Shown: positions 1,328 through 16,103 of the stretch, piece by piece
How the letters are laid out: each line of letters begins with the position of its first letter
Numbering within the stretch: position 1 is the first letter of the stretch
Assembly (NCBI GenBank): GCA_043819555.1
Contig: JBDREQ010000025.1
Location: 96,001-160,000 of the forward strand
Direction of reading: 5' to 3'
From: Candidatus Zixiibacteriota bacterium
GTDB taxonomy: Bacteria; Zixibacteria; MSB-5A5; GN15; JAAZOE01
Length of the DNA: 64,000 bases
Translations under genes and position numbers: made by a program
Notes under the pieces: model-generated
What the model was told of the DNA's origin: nothing
The model's database searches: none
What the model saw: only the letters and a program-made list of their open reading frames with translations

Positions 1328-3100
1328 ATGAAAAAAGCAGCGCTAATTTTGGCTTTATGTGTAACAGCCTTAATTATTGTTGGGTGTCAAGGCGGCAAAA
1401 AAGCTGACATATTAAGTGAGAAATTTCCGGTCGACGAATTGCGCCCTTTAGTATTTGCGGAAAGTGATTTTCTTACCATTGATATTGATATGTTGGCTCA
1501 GAAATTCAATGATGATCAGGTGCCCATATCGAAAACAAAAATCGATTCTATTACGGCTTTAGAAACTGTTTATAATATGTACCTGGATTCACTCCTGGCC
1601 GTTGATGCCGCTAATTTTGATTTATCAACAACGCCATTACTGGAAAAACAGTACAAAACAATGTACGATGATTTTCTGGTGCGTTTTTTATATGATTATC
1701 ATATCGTCGCGAATGTCGTCGTTGATGATTCGCTGGTTTATGAAACATACGAGTTGATGAAAGATAAATTTATCAGTCCTGAGAAATACCGCGCCCGCCA
1801 TATCGTTATATCGGGATATAATCTCAAAACGGGTGAGGATTCACTGAAATATAAGGGTAAATCGAATGCCGAACTGGATGCCATTGCAAGGGATTTAGTT
1901 TCAGAATTGAGGCAAAGAGCTCTTAACGGCGAGGGATTTGATACCCTGGCGATAATGTATTCGTATGATGACAGGAGTTCCAAGAGTGGAGGCGATCTTG
2001 GATATTTTGAACTATCCAAAATGGTCGCGCCATTTGATTCCGCGGTTCAGAATACTCCGGTAGATTCAATATCGGGCTTAATAAAAACGAAATATGGATG
2101 GCATGTAATAAAGGTGGAGGATCATTCGGAAGAACATTACACGCCAATCGATTCATTGTATGATGGAATATTAAAATATTTAAAACAACAGCAAGCCGGC
2201 ATTAACGGGCAGGCGTTTTTGGATACTCTTAAAGCCAACGCGAATATTTATTTCGATACGGCCGCAATCGCTCTGGACGACACGCTGCATGAAATGACCG
2301 ACGCTTTAGCCATTGTTAATACGGATGGATCGGCTAATCGCGTTGATACATTGACATACAAGGAATACCGCGCCCAAATAGGTCTCTATCTGAAAAGAAA
2401 TGGTCTGGCATATCCCCCAAGTGTCCCTGAAAAGATTGAAGCCATTCGTGAATTTGCCCTGAAATACGAGATTATTCGTTATGCAATTGAAAATGGTTAC
2501 GCCGATCATCCTGAATTCCGAGAATGGTCGGATGGGACGATACTTAAATACGGGGTGGCTACTCTTAAAAAAGATTTATTGGAGGACGGATACGAACCGA
2601 CTGAGGAGGAACTTTTAGCCTATTATAACGATAATATTGAGAAATACCGGGCCGAAAAACCGTTAAAAGTACAGCATATCATTTTTGCTGATTCAAGTTT
2701 GGCTATCCATGTTCGCGATGTTGCCAATTCTGGCGCAGATTTTATGGAACTGGTCGATCAATACTATCCGGGTGACCCGGAAATCAAACAGGCCGCGGCT
2801 AATCTCGGATATATCGGTGAAAAAGATATGCCCGGCGCTTTCTGGAGGCGGGCTTTATCAACGAAGGTCGGCGAAGTGTCGCGTCCGGTAAAAACAGAAT
2901 ATGGATATCATATTATTAAGGTTTTGGAAAAATCTCCGGACAAGGAATTTGCGGCGGTAAAATCGGGAATTAGAAAAACGATGCAGGATAATTATAAGCA
3001 TGATAAAATCTGGGAATTTGTCGAACGCCGGCTGGGCGGTGCGCCGAAAATTTACTGGGATAGACTTGGTGATTTGTATCGCAAACCGATAGAGCCATAA
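1328..3100 (+). CDS. Lipoprotein peptidyl-prolyl isomerase with two parvulin (PpiC) domains
   Basis: Lipobox IIVG-C; ARHIVI...GGDLGYF...TKYGWHVIKV and VQHII...TEYGYHIIKV; ATG at 1328 preferred. Confidence 0.88.
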   Translation: MKKAALILALCVTALIIVGCQGGKKADILSEKFPVDELRPLVFAESDFLTIDIDMLAQKFNDDQVPISKTKIDSITALETVYNMYLDSLLAVDAANFDLSTTPLLEKQYKTMYDDFLVRFLYDYHIVANVVVDDSLVYETYELMKDKFISPEKYRARHIVISGYNLKTGEDSLKYKGKSNAELDAIARDLVSELRQRALNGEGFDTLAIMYSYDDRSSKSGGDLGYFELSKMVAPFDSAVQNTPVDSISGLIKTKYGWHVIKVEDHSEEHYTPIDSLYDGILKYLKQQQAGINGQAFLDTLKANANIYFDTAAIALDDTLHEMTDALAIVNTDGSANRVDTLTYKEYRAQIGLYLKRNGLAYPPSVPEKIEAIREFALKYEIIRYAIENGYADHPEFREWSDGTILKYGVATLKKDLLEDGYEPTEEELLAYYNDNIEKYRAEKPLKVQHIIFADSSLAIHVRDVANSGADFMELVDQYYPGDPEIKQAAANLGYIGEKDMPGAFWRRALSTKVGEVSRPVKTEYGYHIIKVLEKSPDKEFAAVKSGIRKTMQDNYKHDKIWEFVERRLGGAPKIYWDRLGDLYRKPIEP

Positions 3101-4999: not shown

Positions 5000-5060
5000 A
5001 AAACGAGGAGATGATTTCCGATTTAATTAGACAATTTTTTCAAATGTGAGGGAAAGGGGA

Positions 5061-5834
5061 ATGGTTAAAATTGAGTTCACAATTCTGGGGTCATCGGCAG
5101 GGATGCCGCAGGCCAATCGTGTCAATTCGGGATATATTCTGGATGTTAATGGCGCGCTTTATTTATTTGATTGCGGGGGAGGGGTGTCGTCGGCGTTTCG
5201 GCGAGCGGGGTTTGATCCTCCTGATGTAAAATCAATAGTAATTTCTCATACTCATCCTGACCATATCTCCGATCTACCGCTTTTTATTCAGATGCAATAT
5301 CTGGCTGATAGGAAAGAACCTCTTGATATTTATATTCCGTCCGAAATTCTTCAGCCGATTCAGGATTTTTTTCACGCCCTCTATCTATTTCCTGAAAAAC
5401 TGCCCTTTGAAATTAATTTTCAACCGGTGAATAAGGGTGAGAATATTAATCATGAAAGTATTTCAATTCATCCAATTCTCAATACTCATCTCATTGGACA
5501 TACTGATTTGATAAATGATTTTGGATTAAAAAATAAAATGCAGTGTTTTTCGTATCTGATACACGCCGGCGATAAATCGATTGTTTATTCGGCTGATTTG
5601 GGCTCGGAAAAAGATCTTGGCACTTATCTGACCGATGTTGATTTACTTGTTTTCGAATCGACCCATATTGAGATTGCGAGTTTAATTGATATGGTTATGG
5701 ACTATAACGTCGGCAAAACTGTTTTGACTCACCTCGCCGAAGATTTTGATACCAATAGCGCAGTTGCACAGGCTGAAAAAGCCGGATATAAAAATCTCCT
5801 CATCGCCGAGGATGGGATGAGGGTGGAGGTTTAA
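5061..5834 (+). CDS. MBL-fold metallo-hydrolase, RNase Z/BN-like
   Basis: LGSSAG, FDCGGG, SHTHPDH, YSAD, LTHL motifs; ATG at 5061 follows a purine-rich RBS. Confidence 0.85.
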   Translation: MVKIEFTILGSSAGMPQANRVNSGYILDVNGALYLFDCGGGVSSAFRRAGFDPPDVKSIVISHTHPDHISDLPLFIQMQYLADRKEPLDIYIPSEILQPIQDFFHALYLFPEKLPFEINFQPVNKGENINHESISIHPILNTHLIGHTDLINDFGLKNKMQCFSYLIHAGDKSIVYSADLGSEKDLGTYLTDVDLLVFESTHIEIASLIDMVMDYNVGKTVLTHLAEDFDTNSAVAQAEKAGYKNLLIAEDGMRVEV

Positions 5835-13847: not shown

Positions 13848-14161
13848 ACACCCCACCGCTTCGCGGCACCCCTCTCAAGACAGGCGATAGCCTGGTTGGG
13901 GAATAAGCGTATGCTTTATTTCGGCTGTCGCGCGGTGTACCATACTTTGTTCAACCATTTGGTAGGGATGGAGCCCAACGGGCTCCAGCCAAAAATAATA
14001 TTTAATCAACACGCAATACGGGATAGGCAGGAGCCTTTCAGGCTCATGCCCTACAATACTTAATCAATCATGGAATTGGTAGGTCGGGTTCTGAGGCCGG
14101 GAGGCCGAAAAATCCGACAAACAGAAATGTCGGGTTTATCACTTCGTTCGGAACCCGACCT
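13848..14161. repeat. Cluster of REP/REPIN-like palindromes
   Basis: GTAGGG...CCCTAC inverted pair with internal hairpins (13962-14054); AGGTCGGGTTC...GAACCCGACCT (14081-14161); CCCCACCGCTTCGCGGCACCCCTCT (from 13851). Confidence 0.65.
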
Positions 14162-14218
14162 TGTATTCAACGATTTTAATTTATGGGGAGATAGTAATTC
14201 CCTCGCTTCTAAATTCCC

Positions 14219-14249
14219 TTGACTTAACGGCGATAAAAAGTATTATATA
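14219..14249 (+). promoter_or_regulatory. Sigma70-type promoter of tRNA-His/hisS
   Basis: TTGACT (14219-14224), then TATTAT/TATATA at 14241-14249. Confidence 0.6.
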
Positions 14250-14261
14250 TGCCTTGTAAAT

Positions 14262-14335
14262 GCTGGGGTAGCTCAGACGGTCAGAGCGCCTGACTGTGGA
14301 TCAGGAGGCCGGCGGTTCGATCCCGCCCCCCAGTA
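14262..14335 (+). tRNA. tRNA-His(GTG), no G-1, G1.U72, A73, CCA not encoded
   Basis: Acceptor GCTGGGG/CCCCAGT, anticodon arm CCTGA-ctGTGga-TCAGG, T arm GGCGG-TTCGATC-CCGCC. Confidence 0.96.
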
Positions 14336-14358
14336 TTTTTTGTTTTTATCAGAACATA

Positions 14359-15810
14359 ATGAGTAAAAAAAAGAACAAGCCAAAAAAGATTAAACCGGAA
14401 GTCCTAAAGGGTTTCAAAGACTATCCGCCGTCCGAAGAGATTGCGCGGCAAAAGCTTGTAGCGGTTTTTCGGGAAGTGTTTGAGTCGTTTGGATTCTCTC
14501 CGCTTCAAACCCCGGCTCTTGAGCGAGTCGAAGTTCTGAAAGGTTCGGATTACGGACAGGATAACCTGGAGACGATTTTCAGCTTTGTTGGCCCGGAAAA
14601 AACCGATATGGCTCTGCGTTTTGAACTGACCGCTTCGCTGGCGCGGTATGTCGCCGGATATCCGGAATTACCGCTTCCGTTTCGCAGATATCAGATCGGC
14701 CCGGTCTGGCGCGTCGATAAACCCGGTCCGGGAAGGTTTCGAGAATTCACTCAGTTCGATATCGATTCGGTAGGAACGTCGAGCATGCTGGCCGATGCCG
14801 AGATTATGGCGGCGATCTGCAAATCATTCGAGAAACTTGGCCTGACAAATTACAAAGTCAAATACTCCAATCGAAAAATACTGAATGGCCTCGCGCAGTA
14901 TGCCAAAATCCAGCCGGAAACGGCCCCTGATGTTTTTCGAGTGATCGACAAGTTAGATAAGCAGGGAATGGACGCGGTAAAGCTCGAACTTGGTCCAGGG
15001 CGAACAGATATTTCGGGCGATAAGATTCCGGGATTGAATTTACCCGGTGAACAGATTGAGATTCTTGAAAAGTTTCTATTACTGCAATCTTCAGAAGAAA
15101 ATAGTATTGAAGCCGCCGGAAAATTATTGTCTGGGATTGCCGATGCCGAAGAGGGCATTGATGAGCTAAAACTTATTGCATCCTATCTCAAAAATCTCGG
15201 TGTTCCAGAAGAGAAGGCTCAAATTGATTTGACCATTGTGCGGGGACTCGGATATTATACCGGGCCGGTGTTTGAGACGGTGCTTGAAGATATTCCCGAG
15301 ATCGGATCGGTGTTTGCCGGAGGGCGTTATGACGGTTTAGTCGAGCGGTTTCTTGGAAAGAAAATTCCGGCAACGGGGGCGTCGGCGGGAATTGACCGAC
15401 TACTGGCGGCGCTGATGCTAAAAGGAGTTATCAAAACCGAGCCGACGATATCTCAGGTTCTCGTTACCGCGATGGACAAGGATCGGATGCCTGATTATCT
15501 CAATATACTAAATGAAATTAGAGACGCCGGTATCAAGGCCGAGATTTTTCTTGGCGAAACGCAGAATTTCACCAAGCAGATTAAATACGCTGACCGGGTT
15601 GGCATTCCAATCGCGGTCATTCTTGGTTCGGATGAATTCGAAAATAACCAGGTGACGGTTAAAAATCTCGTTGCGGGGAGAGTCCAGGCTGAAGAAGTCG
15701 CCGATCGCGAGGAGTGGCTCAAGGCTGAAGATATTCAGGCGACAATTCCCCGAGGGGAATTGATAGATTATCTGAAGAAGCTTCTTAAAGAAATTAATCA
15801 GACAAATTGA
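14359..15810 (+). CDS. hisS: Histidine--tRNA ligase (long, alphaproteobacterial/eukaryote-like type)
   Basis: KGFKD, LRFELTASLAR, WRVDKPGPGRFREFTQFDID, VRGLGYYTG, GGRYDGL; ATG at 14359 because the ORF-track start lies inside the tRNA. Confidence 0.96.
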   Translation: MSKKKNKPKKIKPEVLKGFKDYPPSEEIARQKLVAVFREVFESFGFSPLQTPALERVEVLKGSDYGQDNLETIFSFVGPEKTDMALRFELTASLARYVAGYPELPLPFRRYQIGPVWRVDKPGPGRFREFTQFDIDSVGTSSMLADAEIMAAICKSFEKLGLTNYKVKYSNRKILNGLAQYAKIQPETAPDVFRVIDKLDKQGMDAVKLELGPGRTDISGDKIPGLNLPGEQIEILEKFLLLQSSEENSIEAAGKLLSGIADAEEGIDELKLIASYLKNLGVPEEKAQIDLTIVRGLGYYTGPVFETVLEDIPEIGSVFAGGRYDGLVERFLGKKIPATGASAGIDRLLAALMLKGVIKTEPTISQVLVTAMDKDRMPDYLNILNEIRDAGIKAEIFLGETQNFTKQIKYADRVGIPIAVILGSDEFENNQVTVKNLVAGRVQAEEVADREEWLKAEDIQATIPRGELIDYLKKLLKEINQTN

Positions 15811-15814
15811 TTTG

Positions 15815-16005
15815 GTGTCAGGTCACAATTTCGCTTCGCGAAATCAGGACCCGACACAACCACTTCAATAGTTATCGTTGTCATTCTCGAGAGCGAAGTC
15901 CTGTCAGGGACGAAGCGAATCGGGAATCCATGCAGACCTATTAAAAATTAATACCGTTGTCATTTCTATGAAAGCTGTATGGATGCCAGCGTCCGCCGGC
16001 ATGAC
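15815..16005. repeat. Palindromic intergenic elements (REP-like hairpin and GTCAT...GGGAATCCA/TGGAT...ATGAC element)
   Basis: GTGTCAGGTC...GACCCGACAC at 15815-15857; GTCATTCTCG...GGGAATCCA and TGGATGCCAGC...GGCATGAC at 15880-16005. Confidence 0.6.
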
Positions 16006-16103
16006 ATTAATGATTTATTAAAACAATTCTGGTTACTTGACCTGAATCAATTCCTGAAATGGATTTGTTTTTTAATTTGCCTCTAAGATTATAAGGTGAT
16101 TTA

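Follow-up and report, generated by a model that had tools for sequence, protein, structure and literature searches.

A gene for tRNA-His(GUG) and hisS, the gene for histidyl-tRNA synthetase (HisRS), lie one behind the other on the forward strand of a 64-kb stretch of a Zixibacteria genome (assembly 97.13% complete). This whole stretch is referred to as the window, and all coordinates are positions within it. Nearly all bacterial tRNA-His carry an extra 5' guanine, G-1; the tRNA-His gene of the window does not encode it, and its HisRS is of the type that accompanies G-1-less tRNA-His in Alphaproteobacteria. The features of the two-gene unit are the following.

14219..14246, + strand: sigma70-like promoter, TTGACT-16-TATTAT (10/12 consensus matches; -35 box kept in 9/9 loci of f1, the family that includes the window genome)
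14261, + strand: leader base -1, a T and not a G, preceded by a purine (direct reading; T-1 in 146/166 Zixibacteria genomes with this U72-type tRNA)
14262..14335, + strand: tRNA-His(GUG), G-1-less type (ARAGORN; Rfam RF00005, 70.1 bits, E = 1e-14; direct reading)
14336..14358, + strand: T-rich spacer of 23 nucleotides (nt) from tRNA to hisS (direct reading; T-rich tracts after A73 in most f1 relatives)
14359..15810, + strand: hisS, G-1-less-type HisRS of 483 amino acids (aa) (PF13393, 2.3e-47; PF03129; TIGR00442; AlphaFold pLDDT 93)
14710..14748, + strand: motif-2 loop RVDKPGPGRFREF, residues 118-130 (Gly replaces the Gln of canonical HisRS; KPGPGR)
14989..15021, + strand: LGPGRTDISGD signature hairpin of the insertion domain, residues 211-221 (sequence comparison; strands 214-216 and 222-224 in the model)
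15667..15735, + strand: insert in the anticodon-binding domain, residues 437-459, containing DREEW at residues 449-453 (absent from type-B HisRS in alignments; model)

The tRNA-His is 74 nt long with anticodon GTG, on which ARAGORN and Rfam RF00005 agree. Its acceptor stem, GCTGGGG/CCCCAGT, begins with a G14262.T14334 wobble at pair 1-72, beside which stands C2-G71 (C14263/G14333), and the A at 14335 is the discriminator, A73. CCA is not encoded, a run of T follows A73, and G37 is present. The 9-nt D-loop, AGACGGTCA, has C as its extra base (20a); most relatives read AGTTGGTTA. The set of elements that makes up canonical bacterial histidine identity (an encoded G-1 paired with C73, C72, and a motif-2 Gln in the synthetase) is found in neither the tRNA nor the HisRS of the window. 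The hisS gene starts with ATG at 14359, 24 nt past A73. TTGACT-16-TATTAT is the only promoter-like site near the unit, with none in the spacer, and a TTGACT box with an AT-rich -10 element is kept upstream of tRNA-His in 9/9 f1 loci.

This tRNA-His is the only one among the 44 tRNAs of the genome, and hisS is likewise single. A search for Thg1 and Thg1-like proteins (TLP; PF04446, E ≤ 0.01) gave no match in the 97.13% complete genome and was positive in the Methanosarcina control; a type-A RNase P RNA is present at G000:C3:65437-65814. The first-pass annotation, made from the letters of the window, had read T-1, the G.U pair, A73, the 24-nt distance to hisS, the single sigma70-like promoter and a KPGPGR-type rather than E. 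coli-type motif-2 loop, all of which are borne out here. The genome search that it proposed for other tRNA-His, a second hisS and Thg1 returned one tRNA-His, one hisS and no Thg1.

The enzyme scores 374.6 bits against TIGR00442, the NCBIfam equivalog for histidine--tRNA ligase (cut-off 286.75), and its AlphaFold model (pLDDT 93) has the class IIa HisRS fold. The nearest solved structures are those of Nostoc (3NET; 32% identity, E = 2.6e-72) and Elizabethkingia (6NHI; E = 7.1e-70), with TM 0.77-0.78, plus human HisRS, while the E. coli and Thermus enzymes are far more distant (E = 1e-33); none of the solved structures is of the G-1-less type. Alphaproteobacterial HisRS carry the marks WRNEKPGPG and GRKDESGD and an insert of the form ..EW..Q; the window enzyme has WRVDKPGPG and GRTDISGD, at 33-40% overall identity to alphaproteobacterial sequences. 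In the T. thermophilus complex, Gln117 of motif 2 bonds the backbone at positions 71/72 (Tian 2015), and the alphaproteobacterial change of this Gln to Gly was named Gly123 (Amrine 2014). Canonical HisRS of other Zixibacteria have, where the loop was read, PQKG or PQAG in place of the KPGPGR of the window enzyme.

Two of the landmarks first noted in the protein stand in a different light. The LGPGRxDxSGD motif, taken earlier for an insertion, is present at residues 211-221, as a conserved signature hairpin within the insertion domain. DREEW is likewise where it was reported (449-453). The segment that holds it, described as a C-terminal extension, lies inside the anticodon-binding domain as an insert of some 20 residues, modelled as a pair of short helices (437-454) that strands 431-436 and 460-464 enclose. 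In some f1 genomes (G001, G005-G008, G011-G013; e.g., loci L028 and L031) the HisRS frame is 521-590 aa long and its match to the window enzyme is split near residue 256, which implies, on alignment grounds, that the insertion domain of these relatives holds a further insert some 40-110 residues long.

We read the unit as a functioning G-1-less histidine identity system of the Caulobacter kind, arranged as one operon in a Zixibacterium, whose tRNA/HisRS pair has spread repeatedly (probability about 0.83). What was observed is how the genes are built, that each is single in the genome, which clade the HisRS belongs to, and that tRNA and HisRS types co-vary and are linked; where RNase P cuts, what the synthetase recognises, orthogonality and the route of replacement are inferred. 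Independence from the -1 nucleotide and orthogonality are argued by analogy with work on Caulobacter, and the co-variation of tRNA and HisRS types suggests charging without G-1 that depends on U72, A73 and the anticodon.

The closest described system is that of the RRCH (RCS) Alphaproteobacteria, with Caulobacter crescentus as the model. The G-1-less tRNA-His group was defined by the lack of an encoded G-1, A73, G1.U72 with an adjacent C-G pair (written C3-G71 in the text of that paper) and a 9-nt D-loop with U20a (Yuan 2011). The window tRNA shares with RRCH tRNA-His the missing G-1, G1.U72, C2-G71, A73, the 9-nt D-loop and G37, and its HisRS shares the Gly in place of the motif-2 Gln, the GRxDxSGD hairpin, the insert in the anticodon-binding domain and membership of one HisRS clade. 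It differs from the RRCH system in its Zixibacterium host, its HisRS (33-40% identical, on a separate deep branch), the joining of tRNA and hisS in one operon, a -1 base that is nearly always U, a CCA that is not encoded and C at 20a.

With the canonical system of E. coli and T. thermophilus, in which RNase P cuts at -1 and so keeps G-1:C73 and HisRS uses its motif-2 Gln (Tian 2015), the window system has in common the class IIa HisRS fold, the GUG anticodon and a type-A RNase P RNA. It differs in lacking G-1, in having U72/A73 for C72/C73 and in having Gly for Gln. Other Zixibacteria families still use the canonical system. The solved structures nearest to the window HisRS belong to, or lie near, the type-B group (near Nostoc 3NET, Elizabethkingia 6NHI and eukaryotic cytosolic HisRS); unlike the window enzyme, type B keeps a PQxG loop and has neither hairpin nor insert, and its genomes have G-1/C72/C73 tRNA-His (7/7 across phyla, and in families f7 and f8). 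Histidylation without G-1 also occurs in protists (Acanthamoeba, Trypanosoma), whose HisRS rely on the anticodon and do not depend strongly on G1.U72 (Rao and Jackman 2015). Unlike the window enzyme, these HisRS are of eukaryotic origin, and those of T. cruzi and T. brucei are more distant from it in sequence (E = 1e-43 to 1e-46).

For the HisRS phylogeny we took the best 150 library representatives at 50% identity and built trees with FastTree and with IQ-TREE (LG+G4; 126 and 130 sequences), the latter by fast searches with support from SH-like approximate likelihood-ratio tests (SH-aLRT), which are less thorough than bootstrap. The three marks (loop Gly, GRxDxSGD hairpin and insert) co-occur among the 150 representatives, and their carriers form one clade in FastTree and in both IQ-TREE runs; in the 126-sequence tree the node that unites this clade with its canonical-type sister P0160 has an SH-aLRT of 98.6. 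The clade branches from within the canonical-type type-B group. The window HisRS falls in it together with the named RRCH enzymes and apart from canonical bacterial HisRS, in agreement with the earlier view of an alphaproteobacterial-type enzyme and answering the phylogenetic check that went with it. Alphaproteobacterial HisRS form a single subclade that excludes Zixibacteria (97.6 and 99.6 aLRT) and is nested amid other phyla; the window enzyme sits in a separate, mainly Zixibacteria branch (95.3-95.5 aLRT).

By name, the clade includes Zixibacteria, Planctomycetota, Uabimicrobium, Phycisphaerales, Lernaella, Saprospiraceae, Pelagibacteraceae, Hyphomonadaceae and Pseudomonadota. Further members among the genome matches listed are Blastocatellia and Thermoanaerobaculia (Acidobacteriota) and dozens of Rhodobacterales, Hyphomicrobiales and Caulobacterales; the phyla named here are a sample and do not make an exhaustive list. 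Motif typing assigned 73 of 80 loci to the G-1-less type, again among the matches listed. Of the 120 best named relatives of the window HisRS, most bear the label Zixibacteria, GN15 or FCB group and two just 'bacterium', so neither the organism nor its contig is alphaproteobacterial; a non-proteobacterial organism had been supposed.

Within the Zixibacteria we compared tRNA type and HisRS type across 285 species genomes in 20 families (f1-f20), counting U72-type tRNA-His by a full-length pattern in two versions, one with T-1 and one with another base at -1. The U72 type was found in 166 genomes, 146 of them with T-1 and 20 with another base. Its distribution follows families: f1 14/14 (window counted), f2 4/5, f3 92/108, f4 30/33, f9 6/6, f10 6/6, f16 9/10 and f19 3/3, with single genomes in f8 and f20. 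By the same pattern it occurs in no genome of f5-f7, f11-f15, f17 or f18. The G-1/C72/C73 type was found in f5-f8, f11, f13-f15, f17, f18 and f20; matches to the canonical pattern (…CACC with G-1) number 20/21 in f5, 3/3 in f6 (one match being a chance row), 3/3 in f7, 7/9 in f13, 18/20 in f14, 13/14 in f17, 5/5 in f18 and 12/15 in f20. A first, looser tRNA pattern also gave U72-type matches in f5, f13, f14 and other families, which control columns, stricter patterns and a direct check of five f13/f14 genomes identified as chance. Canonical-pattern matches in f3, f4, f9 and f10 were likewise chance rows, except for extra tRNA-His genes in two genomes, G168 and G103.

The synthetase matched the tRNA type in 20/20 Zixibacteria genomes sampled outside the order of the window genome. 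Nine of these have a G1.U72 tRNA and a G-1-less-type HisRS that is 49-58% identical to that of the window (44-47% for the f16 sample, which matched in two pieces). The 11 genomes with canonical tRNA include nine with an E. coli-like HisRS (25-36% identical over partial matches); a PQKG/PQAG loop was read in six of the nine, while the other three escaped the regular expression. The canonical samples from f7 and f8 have type-B HisRS (38-42% identical), with a PQKG loop in f8 and an f7 fragment whose loop was not read. For the odd single genomes G274 (f20) and G068 (f8) the HisRS type was predicted from the tRNA and then confirmed, with hisS directly behind the tRNA in both.

The two genomes with extra tRNA-His genes are distinct cases. 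G168 (L124, G168:C1:33971-37012) has a canonical-looking tRNA-His with G-1, C72, C73 and encoded CCA beside selA (tRNA at 1470..1545), and its sole hisS is of the G-1-less type; the assembly is a single 4-Mb contig with 8% contamination listed. G103 (L091, G103:C157:3878-5651) has a C72/C73-type tRNA-His within a G-1-less host bin, as part of a tight cluster of seven tRNAs (Pro, Pro, Tyr, Asp, His, Asn, Gln) on a short contig, which looks like a phage-type tRNA array.

The same correspondence holds across phyla. All 13 genomes examined with a G-1-less-type HisRS have a …GTA tRNA-His, while all seven with a type-B HisRS have …CACC (Pirellulaceae, Planctomycetaceae, Planctomyces, Poribacteria, Eubacteriales and one more). 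The two genes are also linked: in each of the 14 f1 genomes hisS directly follows tRNA-His in the same orientation, as expected of the compact two-gene unit first described, and the unit is inherited vertically within this family. Adjacency recurs in the sampled f9, f10 and f16 genomes and in G274, G068 and G267, and beyond the Zixibacteria in Blastocatellia, Thermoanaerobaculia, an uncultured bacterium and two Pelagibacterales.

As a marker of organismal descent we used the Der GTPase of 33 Zixibacteria genomes (that of the window included) and three outgroup genomes. In the Der tree the order of the window genome is recovered at 100/100, f16 is sister to canonical f17 (98.7/98), f19 is sister to canonical f20 (100/100), and f9 plus f10 (96.5/93) stand apart from the order of the window. 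In the 130-sequence IQ-TREE phylogeny of HisRS, f1-f4, f9 and f10 share the main branch and a second branch holds part of f4 with G068, G267, G268 and G274, while G269, f16 and G080 each branch elsewhere. The simplest reading of these patterns is that the tRNA-hisS unit was transferred repeatedly, within the Zixibacteria and across phyla, and that the resident pair was then lost, because the Der tree puts G-1-less lineages beside canonical sister families and their HisRS fall on different branches. Co-transfer, one of two possibilities raised in the first-pass annotation, is supported because the linkage is kept in several phyla and the HisRS tree conflicts with the marker tree, and not by the palindromes to which it had appealed (see below). 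The other possibility, an ancestral reservoir, fits the nesting of the alphaproteobacterial clade among other phyla. No genome with two complete tRNA-His/hisS pairs was found among those examined. Since the synthetases of Caulobacter and E. coli do not charge each other's tRNA-His (Yuan 2011), an incoming linked unit could probably coexist with the old pair.

Some linked loci depart from the simple arrangement. In G286 (Blastocatellia; C113:103754-106885; L275-L278, L237, L229) two tandem G-1-less-type hisS genes (frames of 517 and 580 aa) lie behind tRNA-His, and a second G1.U72/A73 tRNA-His is found elsewhere in the genome. In L171, from a metagenome-assembled genome (MAG) of the Pseudomonadota, a tRNA-shaped gene with anticodon UUA (2333..2406) lies just upstream of a G-1-less-type hisS; ARAGORN calls it 'tRNA-Stop' and not tRNA-His. 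In L183 and L187 (Pelagibacterales, SAR11 relatives) the tRNA-His has an encoded CCA, the start codon of hisS follows about 5-6 bases on, and a tRNA-Phe lies upstream.

Several points weigh against the reading of the unit as a Caulobacter-like, transferable system. Base 20a is C in the window tRNA-His, as opposed to the U20a reported for Alphaproteobacteria. An alphaproteobacterial HisRS was found to work independently of the anticodon (Mukai 2020), so this element may carry a different weight. The Der marker tree is a single protein with weak deep nodes. MAG contamination could yield odd single genomes such as G274 and G068; yet in each of these tRNA and hisS are adjacent on one contig. Other points concern the base at -1. 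T-1 is able to pair with A73 and is far commoner in U72-type genes (146/166 Zixibacteria genomes) than at -1 of other tRNAs of the window genome (6/43). Moreover, three genomes with another discriminator carry a matching -1 base: G-1/U73 in G268 and G269 (f19; L282, L287) and C-1/G73 in G068 (L284). These variant tRNAs keep G1.U72 and encode CCA, and their HisRS are of the G-1-less type; the third f19 genome, G267, has T-1 with A73.

These -1 data are the basis of the strongest rival, in which the U-1:A73 pair would make RNase P cut one base early and leave the encoded U-1 on the mature tRNA, giving an acceptor helix of 8 base pairs as in canonical tRNA-His, and HisRS would read or tolerate U-1. 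Besides the bias towards T-1 and the covariation of -1 and 73 in f19 (T/A in G267, G/T in G268 and G269) and G068 (C/G), this account draws on the T-1 of 6/7 genes from outside the Alphaproteobacteria and Zixibacteria and on the finding that Caulobacter HisRS loses only 5-fold activity on a tRNA with added G-1 (Yuan 2011). It is at odds with 17 of the 166 genomes, which have A, C or G opposite A73. In Alphaproteobacteria the -1 base varies, and isolated Caulobacter tRNA-His has no -1 residue (Rao and Jackman 2015).

The leader sequences also speak to the cleavage site. In a set of 80 genes drawn from related genomes, and thus not independent, all 26 canonical genes have a purine-pyrimidine step at -3/-2 followed by G at -1. 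Of the 54 G-1-less-type genes, three have G at -1; position -2 is a purine and position -1 a pyrimidine in 46 genes each, which is the canonical context shifted by one base. Among the known positive determinants for RNase P is a uridine immediately before the cleavage site (Heinemann 2012), and the conserved U stands where a determinant of cleavage at +1 is expected. We therefore regard retention of U-1 as unlikely, and cleavage at the ordinary +1 site is favoured because the purine-pyrimidine context shifts one base with tRNA class. Were U-1 nonetheless retained in the non-alphaproteobacterial carriers, which we doubt to the same degree, these would have a third form of histidine identity with a helix capped by U-1:A73 (or G-1.U73, C-1:G73), and the alphaproteobacterial form would be a later simplification.

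It is very improbable that the likeness to alphaproteobacterial HisRS is convergent, with loop and inserts evolved in Zixibacteria from the resident enzyme. Convergence has been raised for the eukaryote-like A73 of Alphaproteobacteria (Mukai 2017), and two type-B relatives outside the clade, P0217 and P0221, also lack the Gln (PGPG loop, no hairpin). However, all carriers of the three marks, Alphaproteobacteria included, belong to one clade (98.6 SH-aLRT at the node joining the canonical-type sister), the canonical HisRS of Zixibacteria are very different (25-42% identical), and sister families differ in type. Least credible of all is a functionally canonical system in which a Thg1-like or unknown enzyme adds G-1 after transcription: A73 opposite an added G-1 would be the eukaryotic arrangement (Heinemann 2012), but PF04446 has no match in the 97% complete genome although the Methanosarcina control was found, and the HisRS, which has no motif-2 Gln, falls among enzymes shown to be G-1-independent.

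On the Caulobacter-like reading, one promoter would transcribe tRNA-His and hisS together, RNase P would cut at +1 so that the mature tRNA starts at G1 with no -1 nucleotide, and the 3' trailer would be removed and CCA added, leaving the remaining transcript as hisS mRNA. HisRS, with Gly for Gln in its motif-2 loop and an extra element in its anticodon-binding domain, would then select its tRNA through G1.U72, A73 and probably the GUG anticodon rather than G-1:C73. Given no cross-reaction with a canonical pair, the linked unit could arrive in a genome, exist beside the resident pair and then take its place.

The bacterial G-1-less case has been described as alphaproteobacterial only (Yuan 2011, Amrine 2014, Mukai 2020 and the 2023 identity review), and Rao and Jackman (2015) call it 'the only exceptions … identified to date'. 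We found no published report of a G-1-less pair outside the Alphaproteobacteria, in a search that most subscription journals lay beyond. The enzyme was ascribed to a transfer of eukaryote-derived origin (Amrine 2014), which a later study did not support (Mukai 2017). In the literature the trait is treated as having a single alphaproteobacterial origin, and it has been used as a marker to place SAR11. What is added here is a phylum with canonical and G-1-less lineages side by side, and trees in which the alphaproteobacterial system lies inside a wider, horizontally spread family; six or more phyla have the linked tRNA/HisRS pair, and the alphaproteobacterial enzymes are nested among those of the others. 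The alphaproteobacterial system was thus more likely acquired from other bacteria than invented within the clade or received from a eukaryote, and the trait is weakened as a phylogenetic marker. Natural sister lineages that differ only in histidine identity would make the swap of a tRNA identity rule directly testable, and the pool of candidate orthogonal HisRS/tRNA pairs becomes larger.

The unit is flanked by two groups of repeats.

13958..14170, no strand assigned: three short palindromic dispersed repeats upstream (10, 5 and 4 blastn-short hits genome-wide, self-match counted; inverted repeat I4 at 14126..14162)
15812..16008, no strand assigned: three palindromic dispersed repeats downstream of hisS (7, 14 and 2 genome hits, including the element itself; inverted repeat I1 at 15815..15857)

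Short palindromic intergenic repeats of this kind (resembling repetitive extragenic palindromic, or REP, elements) come in families that occur elsewhere in the genome as well, each with 2-14 hits, self included. The 'mobile palindromes' of the first-pass annotation are thus real as dispersed repeats but say nothing on mobility of the unit, and we rejected them as a sign of it: they are dispersed and intergenic, and none of the 14 f1 genomes lacks the unit at its place.

Elsewhere in the window, positions 5046-5834 encode a 262-aa protein of the metallo-beta-lactamase fold, of which RNase Z models match the N-terminal half only and below their cut-offs (117.8 vs. 292.95 bits); this protein may or may not be a trimmer of CCA-less tRNA precursors. 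Positions 37092-62345 hold a flagellar cluster (MotA, FliF, a FliI-like ATPase, FlgK) in which two flagellins, at 642 and 717 aa, are unusually long.

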